64,000 bases of DNA from IMG/VR virus record IMGVR_UViG_3300042695_002264, positions 1-64,000 of that record, one strand, 5' to 3'. The translations under genes and the position numbers were made by a program. This DNA comes from a virus. The notes under the pieces are model-generated. The model was not told the origin of the DNA. It worked only from the letters and a program-made list of their open reading frames with translations, and ran no database searches. Position 1 is the first letter of the stretch, and every line of letters begins with the position of its first letter. Of the stretch, positions 1-15,996 are shown one piece after another.

Positions 1-189
1 TACAACACGCAACCGCAATCCGACGAATACGCGACCGAGCACGAGGAAGTGCGCGGCACGTTCGCCGCCGAGCCTGCCGTTGAGCAGGAGCCGCAACCCT
101 ATGATGGGTTTGAGGGGCAGTGGGCTGGGGATGGGTCGGGCTTCGACGACCTCGCAGACTGGGGCGAGCAGGAGGGCTGGGACACGTAA
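1..189 (+). CDS. partial small acidic protein (5' end outside window)
   Basis: Frame 1 open to TAA 187-189: YNTQPQSDEYATEHEE...GDGSGFDDLADWGEQEGWDT; very D/E-rich; shares a motif with 5617..5748. Confidence 0.7.
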   Translation, partial: YNTQPQSDEYATEHEEVRGTFAAEPAVEQEPQPYDGFEGQWAGDGSGFDDLADWGEQEGWDT

Positions 190-308
190 GAGTGTCATAA
201 ACTTTCTCCGAACGTTTCGATGCGTGTCTCCATGACGCGGGAATAAACGATGAGGAGACGAAGCGCCCGTTTAAACGGGCGTTTCAATTTGCTAAAATTC
301 AATGTTGC

Positions 309-385
309 GTAAACCCTTGATATTCAACAACTTACGCTGGCGCGCGGGGCGCGCGGCCGTAAGTCCTTGATAATTAACGACTTAC
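309..385. repeat. 77-bp element copy 1 (core inverted)
   Basis: gtaaacccttgatattcaacaacttac / gctggcgcgcggggcgcgcggcc / gtaagtccttgataattaacgacttac (27+23+27). Confidence 0.95.
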
Positions 386-523
386 GTAACGTCATCAAGA
401 GTGTCATAAAGAATGTCATAGCGCAAAATTCAAACGCTCGTTTGCCAAAACGTCAACAAAAATAGTTTCGCTAATCGCAAAAAAATATCTCGCTTTTCGC
501 GCGTCCTGTGCTATTCTGTATAC

Positions 524-706
524 ATGAGAAACAACAACAGAAGCTGGCGCGACGAAGAACGCGAAGCAACCCTCGACTACCCGCTAGGTGTGGATCGTGA
601 AGATCCCGCCTACCAGCAAAGCCCAGACGCTTACGAGCGTGAAATCGAGCGCCTTAATCGGCACGAAGGCTGGGAGCGTAATCGCGGTGGTTACTACCGC
701 CGATGA
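524..706 (+). CDS. small charged hypothetical early protein
   Basis: 60-aa ORF; ATG 6 nt after an extended -10 (TGCTATTCT). Confidence 0.75.
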   Translation: MRNNNRSWRDEEREATLDYPLGVDREDPAYQQSPDAYEREIERLNRHEGWERNRGGYYRR

Positions 707-714
707 AAAATCGC

Positions 715-743
715 TTGACTTTCAGCCCCATTTCACCGATACT
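715..743 (+). promoter_or_regulatory. sigma70-like promoter, leaderless-type
   Basis: TTGACT-17-GATACT, ATG 750 six nt downstream. Confidence 0.65.
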
Positions 744-749
744 TTCAAC

Positions 750-914
750 ATGACAGAAAACACCACAACTGGCTGGCCCGAAGTCTGGAACTTCGACGAA
801 CCCAAAGACGACAACCTCACGCCCGAACAAGCGTTCGACATCCTTTTCGGCTACGCCGAGGAGCGTCATCGCAACGACCCGTGCGCTCGTCCCGCCCCTA
901 AACCCAAACACTAA
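750..914 (+). CDS. small hypothetical protein (MTENTTTGWPEVWNFDE...)
   Basis: Internal ATG of track ORF 588..914, fits the promoter at 715-743. Confidence 0.7.
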   Translation: MTENTTTGWPEVWNFDEPKDDNLTPEQAFDILFGYAEERHRNDPCARPAPKPKH

Positions 915-918
915 CACT

Positions 919-1128
919 ATGACAAACACAGACGGCATCATCAAGTCGCTTGAAACTCTCATCAAGCATGAGAAAGCAATTCAGCGTCAAGAAAAAGAAA
1001 TTGAAAAATTAAAAGACATCATTGATGGCTCTTTGCAGACGATGCAGGGCCTTCTTGTGTTGAGCGCTGTTCTCTCAAAAGAGATTGAAAGCTTGCACAA
1101 TAATAAGCCTTCTTTTGGACTAAACTAA
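919..1128 (+). CDS. small coiled-coil hypothetical protein
   Basis: 69-aa ORF directly after the previous stop. Confidence 0.7.
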   Translation: MTNTDGIIKSLETLIKHEKAIQRQEKEIEKLKDIIDGSLQTMQGLLVLSAVLSKEIESLHNNKPSFGLN

Positions 1129-1281
1129 CATGAGCAAAATCATTATGACAATCGACACGCGACCGCTTGCGCGTGTCATAGAGCGCAGCGTCCGCAAGGC
1201 ATCTTGCCGCCCATCCTTCGCCATGCGTGTCAAGAAAAAATTCGCGCGCAAGGCAAAGTTTTTTCGCGGTTGGTCTGATCA

Positions 1282-1358
1282 GTAAAGCTTTGAATATCAA
1301 CGACTTGCGGCGGCGCGCCCCGCCGCGCGGCATAACCCATTGCAAATCAACGACTTGC
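1282..1358. repeat. 77-bp element copy 2
   Basis: gtaaagctttgaatatcaacgacttgc / ggcggcgcgccccgccgcgcggc / ataacccattgcaaatcaacgacttgc. Confidence 0.95.
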
Positions 1359-1369
1359 AATATATAGTA

Positions 1370-1386
1370 TTCAGGTAGCGTGCCAA
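1370..1386 (-). promoter_or_regulatory. sigma54-like -24/-12 motif
   Basis: TTGGCACGCTACCTGAA on - strand, at the fixed offset from the element. Confidence 0.55.
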
Positions 1387-1426
1387 TATTGGCGAATCTA
1401 TAAAAATAAAAAAATAAAAAAACCTA

Positions 1427-1455
1427 TTGACGAAAACATCAAACCGAGTTAGCAT
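1427..1455 (+). promoter_or_regulatory. sigma70-like promoter, leaderless-type
   Basis: TTGACG-17-TAGCAT, ATG 1462 six nt downstream; A-tracts upstream. Confidence 0.65.
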
Positions 1456-1461
1456 AAATGT

Positions 1462-1926
1462 ATGAAAAATAAAATTATAACAATCATAGTCACTGCATTG
1501 GTAACCGCAGCAGTTACTTTCGTTACTCTATCACTTACAGATAGCGAACCGCTGACCGACTGGGTAAAAATGGCGAAGTTAAGAATTAAAGGATGCTCTG
1601 ATCCCGAGGCGCACCTGAGCAACGCCAAGCGGATAAAGGGTTGGCTTACCGCAGTTGGAGAGCATGAGCCTGTTAGTGTGAGAATCAGAGAAGGTGTAGG
1701 CTTGCCGCCAGACCAGAGTTTGGCTCCTAAAGGGGTTAAACTCACTCCAACAGCTACAGAAATGTTCATTTTAGTTCGTTCTTCTGATTTTGAGAACAAT
1801 ATCCGTGAGATATACGAATTTGATCTCATGAAAATTATGGTGGATAAGGATGCAAGAAAACAATTAAGAGAACTTATTACCAAAACTAAAGCACAGAGCA
1901 ATGAGTTTGGTTTCGGTAGTAACTAA
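1462..1926 (+). CDS. hypothetical protein with N-terminal signal/membrane anchor
   Basis: 154 aa; MKNKIITIIVTALVTAAVTFVTL; stop lies inside element copy 3. Confidence 0.8.
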   Translation: MKNKIITIIVTALVTAAVTFVTLSLTDSEPLTDWVKMAKLRIKGCSDPEAHLSNAKRIKGWLTAVGEHEPVSVRIREGVGLPPDQSLAPKGVKLTPTATEMFILVRSSDFENNIREIYEFDLMKIMVDKDARKQLRELITKTKAQSNEFGFGSN

Positions 1927-1995
1927 CTGAAATTCAACAACTTGCAGAGCCAGATCGGGCCGCGCGGCGTAACTCCTTGATATTCAAAGACTTAC
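1919..1995. repeat. 77-bp element copy 3
   Basis: gtaactaactgaaattcaacaacttgc / agagccagatcgggccgcgcggc / gtaactccttgatattcaaagacttac. Confidence 0.9.
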
Positions 1996-2006
1996 GCAAA
2001 ACGCTA

Positions 2007-2023
2007 CGCAATAGCCATGCCAA
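2007..2023 (-). promoter_or_regulatory. sigma54 -24/-12 motif (canonical)
   Basis: TTGGCATGGCTATTGCG matches TGGCAYR-N4-TTGC. Confidence 0.65.
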
Positions 2024-2097
2024 GTTGCAGAAAAAAAATTTCACACAATCGCAAAAAAATCCCTTGCATTTTTGCGCGTCCGCGCTATATTGAAATC

Positions 2098-2613
2098 ATG
2101 AAAGAGAGAAAATCACTAAACGAAAAGCCTCTGACTTGCCTGTTCGTCGGCGTTACCCTCGCTTTGGTATCAGCAGGAGTTGCCATTTATGGGTTGCGGT
2201 TTGGGTTTGCGTCTATTGCCTTTTTGCTTGTTGCTGCTGCAATCTTAAATATCGCAGCGTGGTTTTTTGCCACCCCTGTCGTCTCTTTCGTTGGCGATTT
2301 TGTAGGAAAATTTTTTACTGGAAGTCAAAACTTTAGCAAGCCCCAGCCTGCTTACAGCCTGCCAGATGGTCTTGCCGCTACCGGACAAAACGCTTGCGCT
2401 ATCCTTGCCTACAATGAACTTGCAAAAAATCATCCCGAAGAAATCTTGCCTCATCTTCGCGTGATGAGAATATGGATTGAAAAAATGAATGACGTTGACG
2501 CTGCGGTTATGGCTTACAATCTCGCCTTGAAAAAAATTCGCGGACAAAAAAATCGCAACGAGTTTACAAAAATGGCAAAAAATAATTTCAGCAAATTCAT
2601 CAGCTTTGAATGA
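2098..2613 (+). CDS. two-TM membrane protein with TPR-like helical C-terminus
   Basis: ATG 2098 six nt after TATATT; two hydrophobic segments, then helical repeats (PQPAYS...AILAYNELAKNHPEE). Confidence 0.75.
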   Translation: MKERKSLNEKPLTCLFVGVTLALVSAGVAIYGLRFGFASIAFLLVAAAILNIAAWFFATPVVSFVGDFVGKFFTGSQNFSKPQPAYSLPDGLAATGQNACAILAYNELAKNHPEEILPHLRVMRIWIEKMNDVDAAVMAYNLALKKIRGQKNRNEFTKMAKNNFSKFISFE

Positions 2614-2679
2614 GTGTCATAGCAATGTCATAAACGCTCGGTCAAACGGGCGTTTTACTTTGCGCGAAACCAATTCTAT

Positions 2680-2756
2680 ATAAACCCTTGAAAATCAACG
2701 ACTTACGGCGGCGCGCCCCGCCGCGCGGCGTAACCCATTGCAAATCAACAACTTAC
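2680..2756. repeat. 77-bp element copy 4
   Basis: ataaacccttgaaaatcaacgacttac / ggcggcgcgccccgccgcgcggc / gtaacccattgcaaatcaacaacttac. Confidence 0.95.
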
Positions 2757-2767
2757 AACATACATCA

Positions 2768-2784
2768 TTCAGATAGCGTGCCAA
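2768..2784 (-). promoter_or_regulatory. sigma54-like -24/-12 motif
   Basis: TTGGCACGCTATCTGAA. Confidence 0.55.
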
Positions 2785-2866
2785 CTTTGCAGAGGGGCAA
2801 AAAATAAAAAAAATAAAAAACGAAAAAATCCCTTGCGTTTTTGCAGTCCTGTGCTATTCTTTAAGC

Positions 2867-3019
2867 ATGGAAAAGAAAATGACTCAATATGCGGACAAGC
2901 TCAACGCCTTCCGCGCTGGCGAAATCACCGAGGACGAATGGAAAGCGTTCTGTTTTGAGGCTCTCTCCGAGATTCTCGAAGACACGAAAGATGTCCTCAT
3001 CAGGCTGAAAAATGCTTGA
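2867..3019 (+). CDS. 50-aa hypothetical protein (below ORF-track cutoff)
   Basis: MEKKMTQYADKLNAFRAGEITEDEWKAFCFEALSEILEDTKDVLIRLKNA; ATG 6 nt after TGCTATTCT. Confidence 0.75.
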   Translation: MEKKMTQYADKLNAFRAGEITEDEWKAFCFEALSEILEDTKDVLIRLKNA

Positions 3020-3050
3020 CCCAATCGCAACAATCAAACATACTACGACC

Positions 3051-3227
3051 ATGAAACAAACACCACAAAAAGCCCAACTCTGGGCAGTCGGAAACAAAGT
3101 CTATCGCGTCATCCGCAACGAAGGCGACAAGACTCACGTTCATCATCACGGGCAAATGGCCCTGTTCTATACGCGCCATCTGAAAATGGCGACACCTTCA
3201 CAAGTTGCAGAATACTTGGGAAAATAG
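3051..3227 (+). CDS. small beta-rich hypothetical protein
   Basis: TTGACC(3016)-17-CATACT-6-ATG; resembles 9548..9718. Confidence 0.75.
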   Translation: MKQTPQKAQLWAVGNKVYRVIRNEGDKTHVHHHGQMALFYTRHLKMATPSQVAEYLGK

Positions 3228-3263
3228 TTTGACAATCACCACAAAACCTAACAGAATAACAAC

Positions 3264-3479
3264 ATGACAAAAAAACAATTCACCGCAATCGCTAACATCT
3301 TGGGAAAACGCTTGGCCGAAAAAGTCAAAGCACCCATCGGAGAATACGAAGTTGTCGAAGTCCTCGCGTTGGACTTGGCGAAATACTTCTCGACAGAAAA
3401 CCCTCGTTTCGACGAAGATCGCTTTCTGGAAGCTGTTTTTACTCACACCCCTAACATCCCTGTGGGATCATATAAATAA
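3264..3479 (+). CDS. small phage protein (MTKKQF..IA...NPRFD..RF..A type)
   Basis: TTGACA(3229)-17-CAGAAT-6-ATG; NPRFDEDRFLEA motif typical of small phage proteins. Confidence 0.8.
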   Translation: MTKKQFTAIANILGKRLAEKVKAPIGEYEVVEVLALDLAKYFSTENPRFDEDRFLEAVFTHTPNIPVGSYK

Positions 3480-3483
3480 TCAC

Positions 3484-3663
3484 ATGAAAAAATACATCAC
3501 ATTCGACCGCATTGCCTACGCAATGTCCCTCTCCACCTTCATCTTCATCGCCGTGACGCTTTGCGCTGCTTGCGTTGAATTGCAAAACAGAACCAGCAAG
3601 AACCAAAAGCAAATGCAGGAAGAAGTCCGCGCAATGTTTGCCCACATCGAGGCACCTCTATGA
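3484..3663 (+). CDS. small single-TM protein
   Basis: MKKYITFDRIAYAMSLSTFIFIAVTLCAA; ATGA overlap with the next gene. Confidence 0.7.
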   Translation: MKKYITFDRIAYAMSLSTFIFIAVTLCAACVELQNRTSKNQKQMQEEVRAMFAHIEAPL

Positions 3664-3860
3664 TTACCCCCAATATCCAAAAAGCTCTTGAGTCAAACGG
3701 AGTTCGTTTCTTTGCAAAAGACTTTCTCATGGAAGGTATGCGGAAAGACTGCGTTGACGCCGTGCATGATGCAAAACTCGTTTACGAATTGCTAAAAGAA
3801 CGCATGGAAAAAATGCTTGCAATCGAACCCGAAGACGAATACATTAAAGCCAATGAGTAA
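3660..3860 (+). CDS. hypothetical protein
   Basis: 66-aa ORF, translationally coupled. Confidence 0.7.
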   Translation: MITPNIQKALESNGVRFFAKDFLMEGMRKDCVDAVHDAKLVYELLKERMEKMLAIEPEDEYIKANE

Positions 3861-4041
3861 AGACCAAGTCAAAGCCGTGTGCGATTACTCGCATGATGTC
3901 ATAATGAAAATCAAAGCCGTGTTCGGATTCAAAAAGAAAAGTCCTTCGCTTCTTTGTCATAGTCTCGCGCACCTCAACACCGCGACATGGCTTGAGCGCG
4001 CGGTCTGCAACGGCACAATCATGGACTACAAGCCGCGATAA
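3853..4041 (+). CDS. hypothetical protein
   Basis: ATG overlaps the previous ORF end; stop 1 nt before element copy 5. Confidence 0.55.
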   Translation: MSKDQVKAVCDYSHDVIMKIKAVFGFKKKSPSLLCHSLAHLNTATWLERAVCNGTIMDYKPR

Positions 4042-4042
4042 C

Positions 4043-4119
4043 GTAAAGCGCTAATAATCAAGCACTTACGGCGGCGCGCCCCGCCGCGCAGCGTAAGTCG
4101 TTGAAAATCAATCACTTAG
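4043..4119. repeat. 77-bp element copy 5
   Basis: gtaaagcgctaataatcaagcacttac / ggcggcgcgccccgccgcgcagc / gtaagtcgttgaaaatcaatcacttag. Confidence 0.95.
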
Positions 4120-4130
4120 GCAAAAGCACT

Positions 4131-4147
4131 TTCATACAGTGTGCCAA
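4131..4147 (-). promoter_or_regulatory. sigma54-like -24/-12 motif
   Basis: TTGGCACACTGTATGAA. Confidence 0.5.
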
Positions 4148-4230
4148 GTCCGCTGTCAAGTAGAAAAAAAATATTTTTTTAATCGTAAAAAATTCCTTGC
4201 GTTTTTGGCATATTGTGGTATTCTTTAATT

Positions 4231-4470
4231 ATGAAAATCACCAAGCCCGACCTCTACGAAGCCCTCATCCAAGCGCGTGTCGCCTTATCGAAAGACATCC
4301 GCGAAACTTTGCGCGGTCGCCACCTCTCCTACGTTCAAGACCTCTCGCGGAAATCCATCCGCGAAAAAATCGCGGCCTATCGGTTGCTCTCCAACCTCTC
4401 CACGATCAACGCGGAAAGCTACTCGGACAACCGCTCTCTGCGTCACGTTAAAAAAGCTCTTGCCAAGTAA
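4231..4470 (+). CDS. hypothetical basic protein
   Basis: TTGCGT...TGGTATTCT-6-ATG. Confidence 0.75.
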   Translation: MKITKPDLYEALIQARVALSKDIRETLRGRHLSYVQDLSRKSIREKIAAYRLLSNLSTINAESYSDNRSLRHVKKALAK

Positions 4471-4495
4471 CGCAATCTCTGACAAAATCACCACC

Positions 4496-5179
4496 ATGAA
4501 ACTACTAAGCACCAACAATACCAAAATCAAAAAAGGCGAAAAGCTCGGCTGGCGCACTTACGGCCTTTCACTTTCACCCGCTGGCAAAAGTGGAAAACAA
4601 TTCTGTCCGCATCGCTCGGCTGGCTGTGAGTTTGCTTGTCTCGACACTTCGGGCATGGGCATCTTCTCAAACGTCCAAGACGCACGCCTTGCAAAGTCGC
4701 GTTTCTTCATCGACAACCGCAACGAGTTTCTCGCTCAGTTGCATAAAGAATTGCACAATGCCGAAAAGTGGAGCGCAAAAAATAATACGCCTGTGGCCGT
4801 GCGTCCGAACGTGCTTTCTGATCTGCCTTTCCATAAGCTGATCGACATGGCGCGCTTTCCGTCAATTCAGTTTTACGATTACACGCCGAACCTTCAACGC
4901 ATGATGCAGTTTCTAAACGGCGAGTTGCCTAAAAATTATCACCTGACCTTCTCGCGCAAAGAGGACAATCAGCATCGTGTCCACGCTGTTGTTGCCGCTG
5001 GCGGTAACGTGGCCGCTGTCTTTAGTGAGTTGCCCGAAACCTACCTCGGAAAGCCTGTCATAAACGGCGACGAAAGCGACTTGCGTTTTCTCGACGCGCA
5101 GGGCGTGATCGTTGGACTCAAAGCAAAAGGCAAAGCTCTCAAAGATCAATCTGGCTTTGTGGTGCAAGTTGGCGTATAA
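4496..5179 (+). CDS. GP88-like phage protein (Cys-cluster)
   Basis: MKLLSTNNTKIKK...CPHRSAGCEFACL...VRPNVLSD...QFYDYT...NYHLTFS...GDESDLRFLD...IVGLKAKG, typical of the GP88 family; probable start ATG 4496. Confidence 0.8.
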   Translation: MKLLSTNNTKIKKGEKLGWRTYGLSLSPAGKSGKQFCPHRSAGCEFACLDTSGMGIFSNVQDARLAKSRFFIDNRNEFLAQLHKELHNAEKWSAKNNTPVAVRPNVLSDLPFHKLIDMARFPSIQFYDYTPNLQRMMQFLNGELPKNYHLTFSRKEDNQHRVHAVVAAGGNVAAVFSELPETYLGKPVINGDESDLRFLDAQGVIVGLKAKGKALKDQSGFVVQVGV

Positions 5180-5250
5180 TGAAAACCTATGGAAATCATA
5201 ATCCTTCTTGCTGGCATTATCGGTGGCGCATTACTAATAAATAAAAAATT

Positions 5251-5409
5251 ATGACACTAAACCTAATCGCACGAAAAAACTTGTTTCGCTTGTCTGAATA
5301 CTTTTTCAGCCTTGCGGTATGGTGGGAACGCGCTGGCGTTATGACACTCCAAAAACTTTTCTTTATGGGGTGGCAAAAATGCCTTGACACACGAGACAAA
5401 TTACGGTGA
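5251..5409 (+). CDS. 52-aa hypothetical protein
   Basis: MTLNLIARKNLFRLSEYFFSLAVWWERAG...; stop 1 nt before element copy 6. Confidence 0.5.
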   Translation: MTLNLIARKNLFRLSEYFFSLAVWWERAGVMTLQKLFFMGWQKCLDTRDKLR

Positions 5410-5410
5410 C

Positions 5411-5487
5411 ATAACCTACTGAAAATCAACGACTTACGGCGGCGCGCCCCGCCGCGCGGCGTAAGTGCTTGAAAATCAACGACTTAT
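5411..5487. repeat. 77-bp element copy 6
   Basis: ataacctactgaaaatcaacgacttac / ggcggcgcgccccgccgcgcggc / gtaagtgcttgaaaatcaacgacttat. Confidence 0.95.
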
Positions 5488-5498
5488 ACAAAATGCCA

Positions 5499-5515
5499 TT
5501 CAAGAAGCATGCCAA
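5499..5515 (-). promoter_or_regulatory. sigma54-like -24/-12 motif
   Basis: TTGGCATGCTTCTTGAA. Confidence 0.55.
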
Positions 5516-5616
5516 CTCACAGAAAAAACGCTCGTTTGAATTTTCGTCAACAAAAATACTTTTCAGAATCGCAAAAAATCCATTGCATCGTGCCGTGCCT
5601 GTGCTACTCTTTACCT

Positions 5617-5748
5617 ATGCAAGCGAACACCATCACCGACGACTTCAACACGCAAACCCAAAGCGACGAGTTTGCCTCCGAATTTGAGGCTTGGCTCGAC
5701 GCGCAGGAACTGAAATACTGGCAGGAAATCGACGCTCGCGGAAATTAA
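5617..5748 (+). CDS. 43-aa acidic protein
   Basis: TTGCAT...TGCTACTCT-6-ATG; MQANTITDDFNTQTQSDEFASEFEAWLDAQE. Confidence 0.75.
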   Translation: MQANTITDDFNTQTQSDEFASEFEAWLDAQELKYWQEIDARGN

Positions 5749-5752
5749 TTTT

Positions 5753-5989
5753 ATGACAAACACAAACCCACTACACGGCTACCTCTCCGACTGCTGCGGA
5801 GCCGAACACGACATCAACGCCGAACACCACATTCTCAACGAGAGTGTGCGTGGAGGATGCTCCGCTTGCGGACACTACTCGGAGTTTTCCCCTGTGGAGG
5901 AAAACGTCCGGCACAATCAACGCATCAGCCTCTCCGCTCTCAATGCGTTCGTGCCAGACGAGTTGAACTCTTACGAGCAGCCGTGGTAA
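5753..5989 (+). CDS. small Zn-ribbon-like protein
   Basis: SDCCGA...CSACG motifs. Confidence 0.75.
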   Translation: MTNTNPLHGYLSDCCGAEHDINAEHHILNESVRGGCSACGHYSEFSPVEENVRHNQRISLSALNAFVPDELNSYEQPW

Positions 5990-6032
5990 ATTGTTTGACA
6001 CTCTCAACCCTAACAACTAACATCATCAATCT

Positions 6033-6527
6033 ATGAACAAAGCAAAAGTCCTAATCAGTCCTTACGGAAACGGCATCGCTGTCGGCCTTGAGGGAAACAA
6101 AGATCAAATCGAACGCGAATATAATCGCTTTTTTAATTGGGGCGCAGCTGGTGCTGGCGCGAATGTCGAACGTGGCAACGGCGACTCTGAAATCCAGCAC
6201 GGAGAACTTGGCGACTCTTACCTCCACTATGTCGGAGAAGGGTTTGCCTACTTCCTGTCATCGGAAAAAGATATGCTTCGCGCTATGACATATGAACACT
6301 TGACCAAGTGGCAAGATAGCGAAACGTCAGCGCAATATAAAACAAAGCCACGCAATCACAAGAGGGATTCGGGCAAGGTATTCCGCGAACACGCGCAGAT
6401 CGCAGCGCAAGACGAATATAATGAAATCGAACGCGAGAACTTCATGCTCTACCAGAAAGCTCCCGCATACATCTTCCGCGAGCTTGATGGCGGCGCGCCG
6501 TCTTGGAGAAGTGAAACGGAGGACTAA
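6033..6527 (+). CDS. hypothetical protein
   Basis: 164-aa ORF with TTGACA-17-TAACAT upstream. Confidence 0.8.
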   Translation: MNKAKVLISPYGNGIAVGLEGNKDQIEREYNRFFNWGAAGAGANVERGNGDSEIQHGELGDSYLHYVGEGFAYFLSSEKDMLRAMTYEHLTKWQDSETSAQYKTKPRNHKRDSGKVFREHAQIAAQDEYNEIERENFMLYQKAPAYIFRELDGGAPSWRSETED

Positions 6528-6531
6528 TATA

Positions 6532-6801
6532 ATGAAAAAAATACTTGTCACCGTTAAGCAAATTATAGAAGTCCCAGACTCTTTCAAAATTACAAGTTTT
6601 ACAGAGCCAGGAGATGTAGCGTTTGATTATATAAAAATAGGAAAAAAATTAACTGCGCCAGATATAACATGGTTTGACTATGACAAAGTTTCTGGCGTTG
6701 GAAGCGAGAGCGACGAACTCGTTGAGCGTCTCGCCCCTGCAATAGTTGACTACTCCTTGCAAGAATTTTCTTTCGATGAAGATCCTAACGTAAGTTGTTG
6801 A
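6532..6801 (+). CDS. acidic hypothetical protein
   Basis: MKKILVTVKQIIEVPD...; TGA lies inside element copy 7. Confidence 0.7.
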   Translation: MKKILVTVKQIIEVPDSFKITSFTEPGDVAFDYIKIGKKLTAPDITWFDYDKVSGVGSESDELVERLAPAIVDYSLQEFSFDEDPNVSC

Positions 6802-6866
6802 AAATCAACGACTTGCGGCCCCGCGCCCCGCGCCCATGTGTAAGTGCTTGATACTGAACAACTTAT
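6790..6866. repeat. 77-bp element copy 7
   Basis: gtaagttgttgaaaatcaacgacttgc / ggccccgcgccccgcgcccatgt / gtaagtgcttgatactgaacaacttat. Confidence 0.9.
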
Positions 6867-7107
6867 ACATAATACCATAACAAGCCCATCTGATAATAAT
6901 AATGCATTTTTATTCATATGATAGTGTTTTATCTATTTAGCTATTTGACTAATAACTATTTCCTATTTATCTATTTCACTTTTAGCTATTTCGCTATTTG
7001 TCGAAGTATTTAAGAAATTTCGACAGGTTTTTTTGTTATGTCGAAAGGATCGACATGAGAGAAAAACATTTGACTGATGTGTAAATTGTGATAGAGTTGG
7101 AGGTAGA

Positions 7108-7181
7108 GGAGTTTTAGCTCAATTGGTTAGAGCGCTGCCCTGTCACGGCAGAGGTTGCGGGTTCGAGCCCCGTAAACTCCG
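7108..7181 (+). tRNA. tRNA-Asp(GTC)
   Basis: Acceptor ggagttt/aaactcc; anticodon arm ctgcc-ctGTCac-ggcag; GGTTCGAGCCC. Confidence 0.95.
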
Positions 7182-7189
7182 TTTTTTTT

Positions 7190-7264
7190 GGGAAGGTAGC
7201 TCAAAGGTAGAGCAGCGCCCTTTTAAGGCGTTGGTTCTGGGTTCGATCCCCAGTCTTCCCACCA
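7190..7264 (+). tRNA. tRNA-Lys(TTT)
   Basis: Acceptor gggaagg/tcttccc; loop ctTTTaa; encoded CCA. Confidence 0.95.
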
Positions 7265-7330
7265 AAAAAATTTCAAAAAATAATCAAAATACCCGTTGAC
7301 AAAACCATCAAAAAACCCTATTCTTAAAAC

Positions 7331-7594
7331 ATGAAAGCACTACTAAATAAAGTCAAACTCGCAATCGCTGACTCCAAAATCGGTCAGTTCACCAACCCTG
7401 TGTATCGCTTGAAGTATCGGCCTTACACCGAACAAGGAAACAATGAGGTTTATACCTACTTCGTTTCTCGACCCTTCGACTTGTTCGCTAACGGAATCGT
7501 GGCTTACTGCTTCGGCAAAGGTGTTCGCAGGTTCCGCTACGATGAAATCGTTGAGCGGGAAGTTGTATCGCTCTTTGGAAAATCTGTGGCGTAA
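7331..7594 (+). CDS. small protein, possibly WYL/Sm-like fold
   Basis: TTGACA(7296)-17-TATTCT-6-ATG; C-terminal AYCF..GVRRFRYDEI resembles the WYL signature R.FR.DRI. Confidence 0.65.
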   Translation: MKALLNKVKLAIADSKIGQFTNPVYRLKYRPYTEQGNNEVYTYFVSRPFDLFANGIVAYCFGKGVRRFRYDEIVEREVVSLFGKSVA

Positions 7595-7799
7595 AGCCAC
7601 GAATAAACAATCTGCCCGACAATCAATATCGGAAATAAAAGAAGCAAAGTTAACCGGATCTTTGCGGTGGTCGCTTAATGCGAAATATAAAACATCCGCC
7701 GAGGCAGATAAACATTTACAAGTAGCCCGAAAAAATATCGGAAACAAAAGCAGGACAGAATAGCGTCTGTCATCATATACAAAACGCACCGAGGCTTGA

Positions 7800-8345
7800 A
7801 ATATGGGAGTCGCCCCGACCCCAAAGATGTAATGCATGACATCTCGGGGCAACTTTAAATATCTACGAGTTCATACCAGAGGGAACTGGTGCCCACGCGT
7901 AGAGAATAAACTCCCAAACTTTTAGTTCTTTTACATCTTGAGGGCTGACTCCTCCCAGAAGGGGGAGAGCGCGCAGCAGAAAACCAGAGGAATTAACCTC
8001 CAGCCCACAACTCTCCCAAGCTCTGGCGGATACATCTCCGTTCAACTTGTGAGCTAGTCGTCGAAAGACGATTCGATGTCGGTGCCGCCAGAAGGCACGG
8101 AGTCATAGGCAGGGAGTTCTGGCCTCCCTGTCAACACTTTCTGTCATAAAAAAAAATCGCCGTGGAGTAACGGTCCACTAGTCAGAACCTACTGATGAAT
8201 AAGAGTAAGCTGATCGTGACAGCAATAAAGGGGATGGTCACCACCGACCCGCGAGCGGCTCGCGTTAGCTGGTTAGTGCTGCAAAGCATTAGCCCCCATT
8301 TGATCCGTAAGGAGACGATGATGGGAAGCATGGCAGCCGACACTT
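7800..8345 (+). ncRNA. candidate structured ncRNA(s), family unknown
   Basis: No credible ORF; many nested helices and GNRA loops (see findings); lies in a tRNA-bearing unit. Confidence 0.55.
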
Positions 8346-8347
8346 TC

Positions 8348-8418
8348 GCACCTTTAGCCAAGTGGTAAGGCAGGAGTCTGCAACACTCTTATCGCTGGTT
8401 CGAATCCAGCAAGGTGCT
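8348..8418 (+). tRNA. tRNA-Cys(GCA)
   Basis: Acceptor gcacctt/aaggtgc; loop ctGCAac; U discriminator; 3' end overlaps element copy 8. Confidence 0.9.
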
Positions 8419-8485
8419 GATTATCAACGAGTTACAGCTACACGCCCCGCCGCGCCGCGTAAATGCTTGAATATCAACGCTTTAT
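8409..8485. repeat. 77-bp element copy 8
   Basis: gcaaggtgctgattatcaacgagttac / agctacacgccccgccgcgccgc / gtaaatgcttgaatatcaacgctttat. Confidence 0.9.
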
Positions 8486-8537
8486 AAAGTATAAATATCC
8501 AGTTGACAAAATTTTCAAATAGGGCTATTCTTACAGC

Positions 8538-9263
8538 ATGATCACCACACAACTACCTCTACCCATGCGTTGCTCTTCTGATGCTCTCGTTCAGCCAGAG
8601 CTTGAACTCAAGCCTACGCGCAATCCTTCCTACTCTCGCGTCGAACGCTTCTTTGATTCCTTGGATCGTTCGCGTGTTGTGTCATACACCGACTACTGGA
8701 ATTCCATTGCGCCCAAAGGAACACAAGATGCAATGTTGCGCTGGCTCTTTGCTTTTATGTCAGTCCATACGAGTTGGAAGTCCAACGTCAACGGCTACAA
8801 CGCAATCAAAACAATGGATTGGTGGCACGATCAACAAGTCCTCCTTAACAAGCTCAAGCATAGTGGCGTTGGCTTGCACAACAATCGCACGAAATTTGTC
8901 TGGCAGTTCCAGAAAAACTTTTGGGGTGATGTCAAAAAGTATTCTCACGCTCCTACGGATTGGCGCGGTCATCGTGACGAGTTGGTTAGCGAAGTGCTTG
9001 GTCTTGGCAAAGCTAAAGTCTCTTTCTCGTTGGAGATGATTCATCCCGACAAGTGCGAAGTTGTCTGCATGGATACTCATATGTTCCAAGCCTACTCGCT
9101 CGACCAAACCAAAGACGAAAAACATTACGATAACATCGAAGCCCATTGGATTTCAATGTGCCGTGCGTATGACGTTCCCTGCTACATTGCGCGTTGCCTT
9201 TACTGGGATGCGATTCAAGACAAGCAGGATTCGCGCTACTGGTCGTATGTTTTTGAAGAATAA
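8538..9263 (+). CDS. HhH-GPD superfamily DNA glycosylase-like protein (Ogg2-like)
   Basis: HhH motif VLGLGKAKVSF followed by VCMDTHM; promoter TTGACA(8503)-17-TATTCT. Confidence 0.65.
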   Translation: MITTQLPLPMRCSSDALVQPELELKPTRNPSYSRVERFFDSLDRSRVVSYTDYWNSIAPKGTQDAMLRWLFAFMSVHTSWKSNVNGYNAIKTMDWWHDQQVLLNKLKHSGVGLHNNRTKFVWQFQKNFWGDVKKYSHAPTDWRGHRDELVSEVLGLGKAKVSFSLEMIHPDKCEVVCMDTHMFQAYSLDQTKDEKHYDNIEAHWISMCRAYDVPCYIARCLYWDAIQDKQDSRYWSYVFEE

Positions 9264-9301
9264 TCCTTGCAATCCATTTCAAAATCCAATACATTAAGAA
9301 C

Positions 9302-9526
9302 ATGAACAAAACCACTACCATCATCACCCGCCGTTCACCCTTCACCCAAAAAGTTAACAGGATGGAGATTCCTCTCTCCCATTCGGAGTTTGAGAAGAGG
9401 ACAATTCTTTGGCAGTCTGGGATGCTCATTCAAGATGCGTTCCCCATGCTGTCCGCTGATGAGCGCGAGTTCATCAAAACTGGTATCACTCCCGAAGAGT
9501 GGGAACAGATGTTTGGAGAAGACTAA
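9302..9526 (+). CDS. conserved small phage protein
   Basis: IQDAFPMLSADEREFIKTGITPEEW motif common in phages; own promoter. Confidence 0.85.
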   Translation: MNKTTTIITRRSPFTQKVNRMEIPLSHSEFEKRTILWQSGMLIQDAFPMLSADEREFIKTGITPEEWEQMFGED

Positions 9527-9547
9527 TATAGAAAGGAGGAAAATATA

Positions 9548-9718
9548 ATGAAACTAATCGAAGGTGCTATTTATAACTACAAAGGGGAAGCTGTTCGTTT
9601 CCGTAAACAGATTGGCGTTGTTGCTTTCTTGTCGCGTCGTAAGCGAGGTTCGTTTGTTGGACGAACTGATTTGCTCAAGAAGGCAAATAAAAAGCAGGTC
9701 GATAAATTCCTCAAATAA
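9548..9718 (+). CDS. 56-aa basic protein
   Basis: Strong SD AAAGGAGG at 9532; MKLIEGAIYNYKGEAVRFRKQ...; stop 2 nt before element copy 9. Confidence 0.75.
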   Translation: MKLIEGAIYNYKGEAVRFRKQIGVVAFLSRRKRGSFVGRTDLLKKANKKQVDKFLK

Positions 9719-9720
9719 GC

Positions 9721-9797
9721 GTAAAGCTCTCGTAATCATGGGGTTACGAGGGCGCGCCCCGCCGCGCTGCGTAAGTCGTTGGAAATCAACCACTTGC
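9721..9797. repeat. 77-bp element copy 9
   Basis: gtaaagctctcgtaatcatggggttac / gagggcgcgccccgccgcgctgc / gtaagtcgttggaaatcaaccacttgc. Confidence 0.9.
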
Positions 9798-9808
9798 GCA
9801 TTTGTCCT

Positions 9809-9825
9809 TTCAGGAACCGTGCCAA
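9809..9825 (-). promoter_or_regulatory. sigma54-like -24/-12 motif
   Basis: TTGGCACGGTTCCTGAA. Confidence 0.55.
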
Positions 9826-9902
9826 TTCCCAGAAAAATATTTTCAATCAAATTGCAAAAAAAGGTTTGCTCGCTCATACAAAAACACTTATTCTTATGAA
9901 GT

Positions 9903-10682
9903 ATGAGAAACCTAAACCTAACACTGCACTGCGGCGGTCACGCCGTGGAATCCACCCAAGTTCAGCAAACTCCCACTCCCGCACCCACGGATTCGTGGAT
10001 GCCCATCCCGCACTTCGCGCTCATCGAGCGTCTGCGCGAGATCGTCGGTAGTGCTGGCTTGACCATCACGCAAGAGGCGCACGCCCTTGCTCGCAACGGC
10101 CTTCGCTACTTCGGATTGTTCCAAGTGGCGGGAATCCCCAACTTCTCACAGGAGTCCAACATCGGGACTGTGATCGGCTTGCGCAACTCGCACGACAAGT
10201 CGTTTCCCGCTGGCATCAACGCTGGTTCCGCGCCTTTCGTGTGCGACAACCTCGCGTTTCACAACGAGATCAAAATCGCTCGTCGTCACACCAAGTTCAT
10301 CATGCGCGACCTTCCTTCGCTCCTTTCGGGCGCATTCGGAAAGTTGCTCAACACTTGGGGCAACAACGCCAAGCGTATCGAGGCTTACCAGTCTTGCGCG
10401 CTCAAGGACGTTCAAGCGCACGACCTCATCGCCAAGGCTTACCGCTGTGGCGCAGTGAGCAAGACCGCTCTGGCGGACGTTCTCGACCAGTGGCACAACC
10501 CCGAACACGCCGAGTGGTCGGAGCAGAAGAACCTCTGGGGTCTTCACAACTCCTTCACCAACGTCATGCGCGGAAACGTGCTCGCGTTGCCCAAGCGTAG
10601 CGATGCGCTCCACGGACTTCTCGACCCTATCGCAGGCGTGGCGCTGGCGAGGGCAGAAGACGCCGAGGCCATCACGGTCTAA
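9903..10682 (+). CDS. DUF932-family phage/plasmid protein
   Basis: Signature LRNSHDKS...FVCDNL...RHT. Confidence 0.85.
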   Translation: MRNLNLTLHCGGHAVESTQVQQTPTPAPTDSWMPIPHFALIERLREIVGSAGLTITQEAHALARNGLRYFGLFQVAGIPNFSQESNIGTVIGLRNSHDKSFPAGINAGSAPFVCDNLAFHNEIKIARRHTKFIMRDLPSLLSGAFGKLLNTWGNNAKRIEAYQSCALKDVQAHDLIAKAYRCGAVSKTALADVLDQWHNPEHAEWSEQKNLWGLHNSFTNVMRGNVLALPKRSDALHGLLDPIAGVALARAEDAEAITV

Positions 10683-10698
10683 ATTCTGAGACGCACAA

Positions 10699-10736
10699 AA
10701 GGGCTTGGCAGGGCAACCTGTCAAGTCTTTTTTTTG
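10699..10736 (+). terminator. intrinsic terminator
   Basis: gggcttggcagg-gcaa-cctgtcaagtct followed by a T-run. Confidence 0.8.
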
Positions 10737-10753
10737 CAAAAATTCATTGTTGT

Positions 10754-10830
10754 GTAAGTCATTGAATATCAAGCACTTGCGCCGCCGCGCCCAGCTGCCC
10801 AGCGTAAGTCTTTGATTGTCAAGGGTTTAC
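10754..10830. repeat. 77-bp element copy 10
   Basis: gtaagtcattgaatatcaagcacttgc / gccgccgcgcccagctgcccagc / gtaagtctttgattgtcaagggtttac. Confidence 0.9.
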
Positions 10831-10893
10831 ATTTTAATGCAAAAAATATCTTGACCGCACACGCAAAAGACTTTATTGTCATTATATCACCAC

Positions 10894-11220
10894 ATGAAAC
10901 TATCAGAAATTCAAGCCATTGCAAACCTCACAGCAAAATTCCTCGGACTCCCAATCAAACCCAAGGCCGAAATTACTACCAATAAACGAGGCCGCGCCTA
11001 CACCACGCAGGGCCGCTTCAATATTCCAGAGTGGGCCTTCAAGCACGGAGAAAAGTTTGTCATATACTATGTTGTGCATGAAGTCTGCCACTTTTACGGA
11101 GGAACATTAGATCACGGCAAACTCTTTTGTCAAGTCGAAGACCGCGCATTAAAATTTTGGGGGCTTTACATTCAACGCAAAAAAGTTTATCCTAATCCAC
11201 AATCAATCTACAAACTATGA
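10894..11220 (+). CDS. SprT/YgjP-like zincin metallopeptidase
   Basis: YYVVHEVCH...DHGKLF. Confidence 0.75.
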   Translation: MKLSEIQAIANLTAKFLGLPIKPKAEITTNKRGRAYTTQGRFNIPEWAFKHGEKFVIYYVVHEVCHFYGGTLDHGKLFCQVEDRALKFWGLYIQRKKVYPNPQSIYKL

Positions 11221-11465
11221 GCAAAAATACCTGCCCTGCTGATTACGATGGCGAAATGCTTGTTATCGGTGGCTATGTAAAATACGATGGAAAGACTTGG
11301 GAAGTCCTTGACTACGAAGATTCCGAACAGCCATACTTTGATGATAACTACACGGAACATAGTATTCTTTTATTGGCTTGCCGCTCGCAAGAGGAAGACA
11401 ATATTTGGATACCAGATTATGAGGTAGAGCAAACTGAATATCAGCAATTGTGTTTTGAACTATGA
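11217..11465 (+). CDS. acidic hypothetical protein
   Basis: ATGA-coupled 82-aa ORF. Confidence 0.7.
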   Translation: MSKNTCPADYDGEMLVIGGYVKYDGKTWEVLDYEDSEQPYFDDNYTEHSILLLACRSQEEDNIWIPDYEVEQTEYQQLCFEL

Positions 11466-11544
11466 AAAATATCGTTCTATTTGTCGCTCTACCTATCACT
11501 ATTTGTGTCTGGTCGTTCACTATTTATGGAGTAATTAAATTTTT

Positions 11545-11617
11545 GGGGTGGTAGCTCAATGGTTAGAGCGTGCGGCTCATAATCGCTTGGTTGTCGGTTC
11601 GAATCCGACCCGCCCCA
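11545..11617 (+). tRNA. tRNA with CAT anticodon (Ile2 or elongator Met)
   Basis: Acceptor ggggtgg/ccgcccc; loop ctCATaa; last base is the first base of element copy 11. Confidence 0.9.
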
Positions 11618-11693
11618 CATCTATTTGAAAATCAAGCACTTACAGATGAGTGCCCCGCCGCGCCGCGTAAGTCGTTGATATTCAATGGCTTAC
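11617..11693. repeat. 77-bp element copy 11
   Basis: acatctatttgaaaatcaagcacttac / agatgagtgccccgccgcgccgc / gtaagtcgttgatattcaatggcttac. Confidence 0.9.
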
Positions 11694-11736
11694 AAAAACA
11701 CTTGACACCAATCGCAACCTGTGATACATTTAGAGG

Positions 11737-11901
11737 ATGAACACTACTATTGCATCCTGTCGTGAACAAATCCAAGAGGACTTGATTTGCTTGCTTGAAG
11801 CTGCGAATAATCTTGGCCTCAAAGAACATCTTGAAGAAGTCACTACGCTGGCCTGTAAAATTGTGGTTGACAACTTCAAAAAACTTGAGAAGATAAGCTA
11901 A
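11737..11901 (+). CDS. 54-aa hypothetical protein
   Basis: TTGACA(11702)-17-TACATT-6-ATG; MNTTIASCREQIQEDLICLLE. Confidence 0.7.
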   Translation: MNTTIASCREQIQEDLICLLEAANNLGLKEHLEEVTTLACKIVVDNFKKLEKIS

Positions 11902-12164
11902 TGAACGACTACAAACTACCCAAAGACGCCTACTCTGCTGCTCGCTATGACGAGTTACACTTTGCTGTTGCCCACTATGGCACAGCCATGCACCGAAACC
12001 TTTGGGACTTGCTTGTTGACGCTGGCTTGAGCAAGCGACAAATCTTTTCCCAATACATGAAGGTTCTTCGTGTGACTACGGCTGTAAATAAAGACATTCT
12101 CTATTGTGTAGGGACTGGTAATTTTTCAATCAAACCTGTTGACAAAAAGAGCAAAACCCTATAA
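11901..12164 (+). CDS. hypothetical protein
   Basis: TAATG-coupled 87-aa ORF. Confidence 0.7.
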   Translation: MNDYKLPKDAYSAARYDELHFAVAHYGTAMHRNLWDLLVDAGLSKRQIFSQYMKVLRVTTAVNKDILYCVGTGNFSIKPVDKKSKTL

Positions 12165-12172
12165 TATCAAAA

Positions 12173-13042
12173 ATGATGAAAACGCTAAACGCACTAATCA
12201 AAACCGACGAGTCCATCACCGCAGTTCTTGATGGAGTTCCCAAGACGATGAGTTGTAACCATCCGTCTTTCACCGAGGCGATCACTTGCCTCGCTACTGG
12301 AGACTACGAAACCCTCGACACCCTGTTCGATGTTTCCGAGTCTATCACCCGCAAGTTTAATGCCGATAATGTCGGCGGTGTGGAGATCACCGATGGCGTG
12401 ATCTACTACCAAGGTGAACCTGTCCACAACTATGTCGTTGATCGTATCTTCGACTTCATGGACGAGGGCTTGCCGTTTGAGCCGCTTGCCAAGTTCCTTA
12501 ACAAACTCATGGCGAATCCTTCTCGCCGTGCGGTTGAGGAATTGTATAAGTTCCTTGAACACAAGCATCTTCCGATCTGTCAAGATGGCGACTTCCTTGC
12601 CTACAAGAGTGTTCGTCAAGACTACATGGATCACCATAGCGGCAAGTTCTTCAATGGTGTTGGTGAGGTCTTGGAAATGCCCCGCAACGCTGTCTGTGAC
12701 GATGCCGATGTGGGTTGCTCCTATGGCTTCCATGCTGGTAGCCATGCGTATGCCAGCACTTTTGGTGGCGGCGACTCTCGCCTTGTGATCGTCAAGATCA
12801 ATCCTGCCGATGTTGTGTCGGTTCCGAAAGATTGCGACTGCCAGAAGTTGCGGACTGCTCGCTACGAGGTTGTCAAAGACTTCGATGGAGTCTATAAGAA
12901 ACCTCTCAACACGGAGTTCAATTCCTACGATGAGGACTACGATGACGAGGGCTACGAAGATGAAGATTATGGTTGCACGGATAAAAATTGCAACTATCAT
13001 AATGTGAGGGATAGCAAGGGTCGCTTCATGCGGAAGCGGTAG
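12173..13042 (+). CDS. rIIB: rIIB-like protein
   Basis: AYKSV..DY.D.HSGKF.N.VG..LEMPR..V....CSYGFHAGS..YA..F....VKINPADVVSVP.D..QKLR..RYEV. Confidence 0.9.
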   Translation: MMKTLNALIKTDESITAVLDGVPKTMSCNHPSFTEAITCLATGDYETLDTLFDVSESITRKFNADNVGGVEITDGVIYYQGEPVHNYVVDRIFDFMDEGLPFEPLAKFLNKLMANPSRRAVEELYKFLEHKHLPICQDGDFLAYKSVRQDYMDHHSGKFFNGVGEVLEMPRNAVCDDADVGCSYGFHAGSHAYASTFGGGDSRLVIVKINPADVVSVPKDCDCQKLRTARYEVVKDFDGVYKKPLNTEFNSYDEDYDDEGYEDEDYGCTDKNCNYHNVRDSKGRFMRKR

Positions 13043-13058
13043 TCGGTGGTGCGACAAA

Positions 13059-13098
13059 AGGGGGTGGGGCTTGTGGTGGGCCTCACCCCCAACTTTTT
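13059..13098 (+). terminator. intrinsic terminator
   Basis: gggggtggggctt/gggcctcaccccc hairpin followed by a T-run. Confidence 0.7.
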
Positions 13099-13116
13099 GC
13101 TCTTGTCTTGTTTGTT

Positions 13117-13193
13117 GTAAGTGGTTAATACTCAAGCACTTGCAATCGCGCGCCCCGCCGCGCCGCGTAAGTCGTTGGCGTTCAACGTGTTAT
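13117..13193. repeat. 77-bp element copy 12
   Basis: gtaagtggttaatactcaagcacttgc / aatcgcgcgccccgccgcgccgc / gtaagtcgttggcgttcaacgtgttat. Confidence 0.9.
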
Positions 13194-13264
13194 GATTTTG
13201 TGAAAAAAATCGCTTGCCATCCCACTCAAATACCACTATTCTGATTACTCAACCTACTACTACA

Positions 13265-15511: not shown

Positions 15512-15533
15512 TTGTTAGTGGTGTAGTGGTGGG

Positions 15534-15571
15534 TGCGGGGCGTGCCGAGTGGTGCGCCCCGCATTTTTTTT
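15534..15571 (+). terminator. intrinsic terminator
   Basis: tgcggggcgtgcc-gagt-ggtgcgccccgca followed by T8. Confidence 0.85.
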
Positions 15572-15581
15572 AGATTAAAAT

Positions 15582-15658
15582 GTATCCCCTTGAAAATCAA
15601 CGACTTACAACGCGGCGGCGGGCGCGCTCGCGTAAGTCCTTCATAATCAACAACTTAC
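15582..15658. repeat. 77-bp element copy 13 (core inverted; last copy)
   Basis: gtatccccttgaaaatcaacgacttac / aacgcggcggcgggcgcgctcgc / gtaagtccttcataatcaacaacttac. Confidence 0.9.
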
Positions 15659-15781
15659 GAATAAAATAGATTAAAAATGTAATATATAATAACTCATTAT
15701 TATTAATACTATGATAGGTCTACTTTCTTATATCTTATTCTTGACATTAGTCTATATTGGTGTATTATATCTAATGGGAAA

Positions 15782-15853
15782 GTCCTCGTAGTGAAGCGGT
15801 TATCACAGTTCCCTTTCACGGAACTATCACGGGTTCGAATCCCGTCGAGGATG
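15782..15853 (+). tRNA. tRNA-Glu(TTC)
   Basis: Acceptor gtcctcg/cgaggat; anticodon arm gttcc-ctTTCac-ggaac. Confidence 0.9.
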
Positions 15854-15905
15854 CATATTGCTATTTGGCTAGTGGCTATTTCGCAAATATGGTGTTCACA
15901 AATAT

Positions 15906-15996
15906 GGGTAGATGGCTGAGTTGGTCTAAGGCGCTCGACTTGAAATCGAGAGTGGGGGAAACTTCACCGTGGGTTCGAATCCTACTCTACCCGCCA
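15906..15996 (+). tRNA. tRNA-Ser(TGA)
   Basis: Anticodon arm ctcga-ctTGAaa-tcgag; long variable arm; GCCA end. Confidence 0.95.

Follow-up and report, generated by a model that had tools for sequence, protein, structure and literature searches.

The DNA considered here is the first 64 kb (64,000 nucleotides) of a 170,518-bp virus record in IMG/VR (IMGVR_UViG_3300042695_002264), hereafter the window, and our subject is a 77-bp element that recurs between its early genes. The final 265 bp of the record are identical to its initial 265 bp, so the map must be circular or permuted. The gene content is T4-like, with rIIB (12173-13042), rIIA (13265-15511), an RNA ligase and virion proteins; the phage also encodes a UvsX-like recombinase, and 15 tRNAs lie in the window. 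An early block of about 17 kb, transcribed rightward, runs from approximately 169,050 through the origin to approximately 15,700, and its GC content is about 47%, compared with about 34% (30-36%) in the remaining genome. The same high-GC early island is present in four relatives and is therefore not an assembly chimera. The island (window positions 1-15700 plus genome positions 169050-170253) may match codon use to that of a GC-richer host before the phage tRNAs are made. No GenBank phage was matched by the early region or by a single cassette in megablast and blastn searches, and the closest cultured relatives share distant proteins only, with 28% identity to cyanophages for rIIA and 41% for a virion protein. 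Some 30 small early proteins had no family match, or only matches of the DUF type, in Pfam and PHROG scans.

All copies of the element can be placed in a frame of 100 columns, in which the 77 bp comprise a left arm (columns 8-34), a core (35-57) and a right arm (58-84). The left arm begins with an outer half-site (columns 8-19, GTAAnnnnTTGA), followed by a 3-nt A/T spacer and an inner half-site (columns 23-34, TCAAsSACTTAC). The core is a GC-rich block of 23 nt (GGCGGCGCGCCCCGCCGCGCGGC), and on its right side come an inner half-site (columns 58-69), a second 3-nt spacer and an outer half-site (columns 73-84). Four half-sites of the form TCAAnnnnTTAC thus make up two palindromic 27-bp arms flanking a 23-bp core.

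A search profile made from the 13 copies in the window was run on the whole genome and gave 14 copies, all in the GC island and within 169689..15658 of the circular map; they have the same orientation and lie 0.6-2.5 kb apart. Relatives were found with a degenerate pattern, which returned 25 stretches on about 19 other IMG/VR contigs. Together with this genome they yield 105 distinct copies that align without a gap, with 10 invariant columns and a mean column identity of 72%, and nearly all copies share one direction relative to transcription. In the two relatives with complete genomes (166.5 and 178.5 kb), 11-12 copies per genome lie exclusively in the early island. The element was not found in GenBank phages, and in representative genomes of 185,579 prokaryote species a pattern scan found it only on four contigs of 1.2-1.9 kb in bins of metagenome-assembled genomes (MAGs), which are probably phage fragments. 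Some relatives (L013:12184-12671, L016:2668-3107 and L022:3362-3622) have groups of three or four elements that alternate in orientation at distances of 75-250 nt; the groups enclose no gene and have tandem repeats of about 50 nt (AAAACCACGTTCGTCGCTCGGCGGAATT...) on their flanks.

The first-pass annotation had pointed out that gene and tRNA 3' ends run into the elements, and this description proved accurate. All copies in the window lie on the plus strand. Copy 3 (1919..1995) holds the stop of gene 1462..1926 in its left arm (1919-1945), the TAA at 1924-1926 falling in columns 13-15, and in copy 7 (6790..6866) the arm's TTGA provides the TGA (6799-6801) that ends the AT-rich gene 6532..6801. 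Two further stops inside an arm bring the number in this genome to four: one at genome positions 169689-169691, and one in copy 2 (1282..1358), where the TAA at 1283-1285, which ends gene 1130..1285, is the TAA of the arm's GTAA. The stops of 3853..4041 and 5251..5409 end 1 nt upstream of copy 5 (4043..4119), whose junction is variable among relatives, and of copy 6 (5411..5487), which is nearest the consensus of all copies; that of 9548..9718 ends 2 nt upstream of copy 9 (9721..9797). The tRNA genes behave in the same way. The last 10 nt of tRNA-Cys (8348..8418, plus strand) are the first 10 nt of copy 8 (8409..8485; arm 8409-8420), and the 3' end of tRNA-Met (CAT anticodon, 11545..11617/11618, plus strand) supplies the first base or bases of copy 11 (11617..11693), which begins at the tRNA discriminator and has a degenerate outer left half. 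Copy 10 (10754..10830) lies behind an intrinsic terminator at 10702-10735, copy 12 (13117..13193) between the rIIB terminator (13060-13096) and the rIIA promoter, and copy 13 (15582..15658) behind the rIIA terminator (15531-15573), at the end of the high-GC early region. Terminator-like hairpins additionally precede copy 1 (309..385; hairpin 261-290), in which the core is inverted (GGGG for CCCC), and copy 4 (2680..2756; hairpin 2632-2660), so that 5 of the 14 copies stand behind a hairpin-plus-T terminator.

The same pattern extends to the relatives. The last base of the upstream stop falls at columns 5-19 in 56 of the 91 copies that have an upstream open reading frame (ORF), with 24 copies at columns 5-8, 22 at column 11 (the arm's TAA), 1 at column 15 and 9 at column 19 (the arm's TGA). 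In about 20 of the 91, the stop lies 54-68 nt upstream, with a terminator between. The clusters at the TAA and TGA indicate that the arm supplies stops in two frames, and ORFs in the third frame always end directly before the arm. It is important to note that this abutment is no closer than compaction predicts, because every feature in the region abuts its neighbor: gene-to-gene gaps in the same region measure -8 to +8 nt, or 21-44 nt when one promoter fits between. Of the two expectations attached to the original suggestion, unusually close junctions and synteny breaks at the elements, the former therefore fails and the latter, as described below, holds. A related remark, that the outer half of the arm is often degenerate where it overlaps a gene, is right about the degeneracy and wrong about coding overlap as its cause: the right outer half, which is gene-free, is equally degenerate (6.9 matches of 8, against 6.6-7.2 on the left), while overlap with a tRNA does lower the score clearly, to 5.2. 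The meeting of gene and tRNA ends with the left arm would follow from the maximal compactness of the region and from the tolerance of the arm's outer half for foreign sequence; the arm would offer TAA and TGA in two frames, and third-frame ORFs would end at their own stop just before it.

Each unit downstream of an element is headed by its own sigma70-type promoter, as had been supposed, and the units are therefore self-contained, nearly all of them leaderless. The 17 kb hold about 25 leaderless promoters of the form (CCC)TTGC/TTGACA-N16-17-TAttCT, preceded by A-tracts and with the ATG 6-7 nt after the -10 hexamer; 42 promoter-like sites were counted, compared with 19.4 +/- 4.1 in shuffles. 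A typical post-element promoter lies at 2833..2866 on the plus strand (CCCTTGCGT-N16-TATTCT-N6-ATG, leaderless), and unit 1462..1926 is headed by another at 1427..1461 on the same strand (TTGACG-N17-TAGCAT, then ATG). Leaderless starts were noted at 524, 750, 1462, 2098, 2867, 3051, 3264, 4231, 4496, 5617, 6033, 7331, 8538, 9302, 9903, 11737 and 12173; rIIA, with its 22-nt leader, and 9548..9718, with an AGGAGG site, depart from this rule. Since promoters are also found within the inter-element segments, the smallest unit is a promoter plus an ORF. Two units had been described as AT-rich, and their GC contents at third codon positions (GC3) bear this out, with values of 0.38 (1462..1926) and 0.31 (6532..6801) where most early genes have 0.55-0.75; GC3 is likewise low in 9548..9718 (0.39) and 2098..2613 (0.42).

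The spacers between element and promoter have features of their own. A box reading RTGCCAA lies exactly 22 nt past the right arm in 46-49 of 102 copies, including six of this genome: copies 2 (1380-1386), 3 (2025-2031), 4 (2778-2784), 5 (4141-4147), 6 (5509-5515) and 9 (9819-9825). Read on the minus strand, it gives TGGCAYG-N4-CTG(C/A), a good sigma54 -24 box pointing back into the element; only about 22 copies also have the -12 GC that a sigma54 promoter carries. The block AAACGCnCGTTTGAAAAAnCGTCAACAAAAATA follows copies 1 and 6 (432-470 and 5526-5565), is found in many relatives and comes and goes between cassettes, so the spacer is a mosaic of smaller blocks. Paired TGTCATA direct repeats, 11-12 nt apart (a Pho-box-like spacing), stand just past stops at 398-420 and 2614-2636, and single TGTCATA or TGTCAAG words recur across many spacers of relatives.

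The first-pass annotation had suggested that the segments between elements are modules that could be gained, lost or shuffled. The relatives differ in exactly this way, with the junctions at elements. According to gene-family maps and blastn comparisons, five phages differ in the order of the island's left half, while the right half (copies 8-13) is collinear. At the DNA level, the flanks of each relative's element (400 nt on the left, 600 nt on the right) were mapped onto this genome. The unit ending at 1285 is followed elsewhere by units that start here at 2765, 4125, 169000 or 390, and here by the unique 1462..1926; for the unit ending at 4041, four or more different next units were found across relatives. 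Two element-bounded units, 1462..1926 and 2098..2613 (together spanning 1462..2613 on the plus strand), were found in this genome only. Compared with relative G003, positions 1430-3057 are extra and consist of three promoter-headed units and two elements; in general, insertions and deletions always comprise a unit plus one element. The five-gene unit 3051..4041 (plus strand) is placed elsewhere in relative G001; its right junction passes through a mosaic element.

The proposed alignment of relatives allowed crossover intervals to be read from such mosaics. The elements L005:6163-6262 and L018:11808-11907 resemble copy 5 through column 72 (3-4 mismatches) and copy 14 in columns 73-84 (0-1 mismatch), with the switch of parentage at columns 58-73. 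In L021:11479-11578 the switch falls within columns 35-72, and in L015:8517-8616 within columns 23-57, which gives at least three different crossover intervals. Some breaks lie away from elements, at promoter/ATG joints with hybrid promoters. In locus comparisons, gene adjacency was broken in 9 of 37 cases across element boundaries and in 6 of 108 across other gene boundaries, counts that are not independent of one another. Breaks and crossovers together show the pattern of homologous exchange anywhere in the repeated regulatory DNA rather than at a fixed site.

A further property emerged within the inner arms. No other long-range pair of columns in the alignment covaries as strongly as 27 and 65, and the base is the same in both. 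The dinucleotides at the center of the inner half-sites (columns 27-28 on the left and 64-65 on the right; e.g., 5430-5431 and 5467-5468 of the window) are GC on the left and CG on the right in 24 copies, the reverse in 23, CG on both sides in one and GC on both in none, that is, 47 heterotypic copies against 1 homotypic. After clustering of copies at 80% identity, 19 clusters are heterotypic and 1 is not (p = 4e-5). At the orthologous position after tRNA-Cys, both inner sides have flipped together between phages. This CG/GC swap means that two bases of mismatch are maintained in the inner inverted repeat. Our best guess is that a perfect hairpin or cruciform would be disfavored by selection, and that this selection would act at the sole positions left unread by a bound protein. 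The element anatomy and the enforced inner-arm mismatch are new here.

Whether the element is read as RNA or as DNA can be judged from the same alignment. The idea that it is a transcribed signal, with hairpins serving termination, 3'-end protection or processing of the RNase III type as in the T7 early region, draws on its location at the 3' ends of genes and tRNAs, its nearly uniform direction relative to transcription, the many G-U pairs in the right-arm hairpin and good folds in some copies (z = -4.3 in copy 10 and -3.5 in copy 5). The folds of single copies disagree in shape, however, with z ranging from +0.1 to -4.3, and RNAalifold returned zero consensus pairs on the aligned copies. A three-hairpin model pairs 72.9% of cells, against 73.3% in column shuffles, and a single long-hairpin model 73.3% against 75.3%, with 500 of 500 shuffles higher. 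No compensatory base-pair changes were seen among the aligned copies, which are conserved in sequence, nor did these contain the conserved long double-stranded hairpin between cistrons that marks RNase III sites of the T7 early type. The left arm has the opposite bias from the right, its A-C mismatches lying on the transcribed strand; the element is not followed by a U-tract; the inner arms are held mismatched; and the five copies behind a canonical terminator would for that reason rarely be transcribed. The RNA-processing role that the first-pass annotation had offered as an alternative is therefore unsupported by conserved RNA structure, and we regard an RNA-level signal as unlikely, whereas the insulator role mentioned beside it may exist at the level of DNA. 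The outer half-sites decay in mirror image, reading TCAR...TTAY outward on either side, which fits a dyad-symmetric double-stranded site and not selection on one transcribed strand. From this we infer that the element would act as double-stranded DNA and not as a conserved RNA or single-strand fold.

The arms look palindromic because they contain four copies of one motif, the IHF consensus WATCAANNNNTTR (AATCAACGACTTA). At least one exact match to WATCAANNNNTTR is present in 90 of the 105 copies; matches fall in the inner left half-site in 69 copies and in the outer right one in 35, and on the opposite strand in 24 and 8. In this genome, the 17-kb island holds 24 matches, all of them within elements, compared with 37 in the other 153 kb, which are AT-rich.

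A protein other than IHF could also read such a site. The elements might form an operator array for a phage-encoded regulator or enhancer-binding protein, one dimer per palindromic arm, which would bring about early shut-off or timing in the manner of stoperators or would drive the sigma54-like box. The dyad symmetry of the 27-bp arms and their invariant positions are what such an array would show, the RTGCCAA box stands at a fixed +22 in about 45% of copies, and one ORF weakly matches the Sigma54_activat AAA+ family. That ORF (35378-36346, minus strand, 322 aa; E = 9e-5) matches in the Walker region, and its product is probably a generic AAA+ ATPase. The restriction of the match to this region, the scarcity of the sigma54 -12 GC and the lack of any recognizable DNA-binding domain among the approximately 30 early proteins in the Pfam and PHROG scans speak against an operator array, which we consider quite improbable.

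Bacteria possess IHF-site-bearing repeats, the BIME/RIB-RIP and Correia elements, and a selfish miniature mobile element of the MITE, REP or REPIN-like kind, inserting or tolerated at 3' ends, with shuffling as a by-product, was weighed. The terminal inverted arms, the multicopy state and the intergenic 3'-end placement resemble such an element. Like the enterobacterial BIME/RIB-RIP (REP doublets with an IHF site) and the Correia elements of Neisseria, it is a short palindromic non-genic 3'-end repeat with an IHF consensus, for which boundary, gyrase or IHF-site roles are conceivable. Unlike them, it is specific to a phage clade and was not found in prokaryote host genomes, the four MAG-bin contigs aside, and it comes without a RAYT, transposase or target duplication; the arrangement of RIB/RIP is also reversed, with IHF-like motifs here in the arms and the GC block in the center. 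In this case, no target-site duplication exceeded background, the phage genome gave no transposase or RAYT match (PF01797), conservation is highest in the inner parts and not at the tips, and neither a solo insertion nor an empty site was seen among about 90 junctions. Private features recur from phage to phage in copies at orthologous positions, a sign of vertical descent. Mobility of this kind is very unlikely to account for the element.

Least credible of all, and in our view next to excluded, is an integron-like system of attC-type sites that fold single-stranded and serve a site-specific recombinase at a fixed point, for although imperfect inverted repeats bound cassette-sized units, gene ends enter the left arm and whole cassettes (unit plus one element) come and go as in integrons, the 170-kb genome has zero matches to Phage_integrase (PF00589), Resolvase or Y1_Tnp and neither attI nor Pc, each unit has its own promoter where attC cassettes are mostly promoterless, sequence is conserved instead of structure with pairing at or below shuffles, the crossover point varies over at least three intervals, and some breaks lie at promoters, away from any element. 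The attC/att analogy drawn in the first-pass annotation thus fails on the same grounds: there is no tyrosine or serine recombinase or Y1 transposase, promoters lie within cassettes, base-pair covariation is lacking and crossovers are variable.

The explanation we favor, and think probable, is that the element is the boundary part of a regulatory cassette of the PeSL type in the host-takeover region of a T4-like phage. Promoter-early stem-loop (PeSL) cassettes have been described in the T4-type phages RB49/phi1, PST/T4 and nt-1/KVP40, where they combine a stem-loop upstream of the promoter, acting as terminator or attenuator, with a Shine-Dalgarno site and start codon at the cassette's 3' end, recombine so as to shuffle ORFan genes, and give rise to mini-circles from neighboring cassettes; homologous recombination via short repeats was proposed as the mechanism (Arbiol et al. 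2010, PMC2839356; Comeau et al. 2014, PMC4122927). They are the closest known system. Both belong to T4-like phages with a hyperplastic early region full of small genes without known relatives; in both, repeated intergenic cassettes unite a GC-rich motif, an A-rich tract and a sigma70-like promoter; insertions and deletions, replacements and displacements between relatives occur at the cassettes; and homologous recombination via short repeats is proposed for both.

Each early unit consists of a sigma70-type promoter and one or more leaderless ORFs, and ends with a stop or tRNA 3' end on the element, or with a terminator and then the element. The element would most likely bind an IHF-type architectural protein through the WATCAANNNNTTR motifs of its arms, a prediction made from sequence, and would mark or insulate the point where a unit ends and the region upstream of the following promoter. 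Elements, together with similar spacer and promoter blocks, would offer portable homology to UvsX-type recombination, and crossovers in these repeats would delete, insert and re-order whole expression units while leaving genes unbroken; changes of this kind are seen among the relatives.

Several observations weigh against this explanation or lie outside it. In place of the PeSL stem-loop there is a sequence-conserved 77-bp element of four half-sites with an IHF-type consensus, in which no stem-loop is conserved. The genes also lack leaders and Shine-Dalgarno sites, the ATG standing 6-7 nt after the -10. The enforced CG/GC mismatch is not predicted by the model. The search of the phage genome found no HU/IHF gene; since recognizable early DNA-binding proteins are missing as well, a host factor would be the simplest candidate binder. 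Between the element and the next -35 there can be anything from 9 to about 200 nt, which makes a role as an activator of fixed geometry unlikely. Finally, the enrichment of breaks at elements is by itself no proof of mediated recombination, because selection leaves breaks at gene boundaries whatever the mechanism. Other differences from PeSL cassettes are that canonical terminators are here separate and optional (five copies), that the whole region is a GC island and that the inner arms are kept mismatched. Endonuclease VII was not found in the phage genome search, and a search of the literature on T4-like phages for repeats of the IHF type or for leaderless early genes returned nothing relevant.

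According to the modular theory of phage evolution (Botstein, 1980), short conserved linkers between modules, such as the boundary sequences of lambdoid phages, reportedly act as crossover points. The element is similar in being a conserved sequence between functional modules at which crossovers occur, and differs in being long, highly conserved and multicopy within one genome. The linker very probably has a function of its own. A more specific and rather unlikely version of the favored explanation is a protein-bound cassette junction, in which four IHF-type half-sites would wrap the GC core, with the inner pair non-complementary, insulating leaderless units and focusing recombination; the virulent T4-like phage would thereby own an integrase-free platform on which gene cassettes are captured and re-ordered.

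Some neighboring features of the island were recorded in passing. An Rfam scan of positions 1-17000 returned tRNAs only. Directly 5' of tRNA-Cys, positions 7765-8347 form a stretch of 583 nt without an ORF that folds beyond shuffles (z = -4.35), is conserved at 84-95% among relatives and matches nothing in Rfam, which makes it a candidate for a large structured RNA. Iteron-like runs of (G)CTATTT at 8- and 15-nt spacing occur at 6928-6998 and 15861-15884, located 5' of tRNA-Asp and between tRNA-Glu and tRNA-Ser.

Shuffling of the PeSL type is the main published idea for how host-takeover genes are renewed in T4-like phages. The linker described here stands out for its size, invariance and information content, and about 20 related metagenomic contigs preserve a record of many independent re-joinings across it, so that crossover positions can be read at base resolution. 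If the arms truly bind IHF or another architectural protein, the boundary of a transcription unit, a host factor and recombination-driven gene turnover would be linked in one site. Leaderless promoters, a GC island and an enforced mismatch between the arms give this uncultured phage clade concrete, testable peculiarities.

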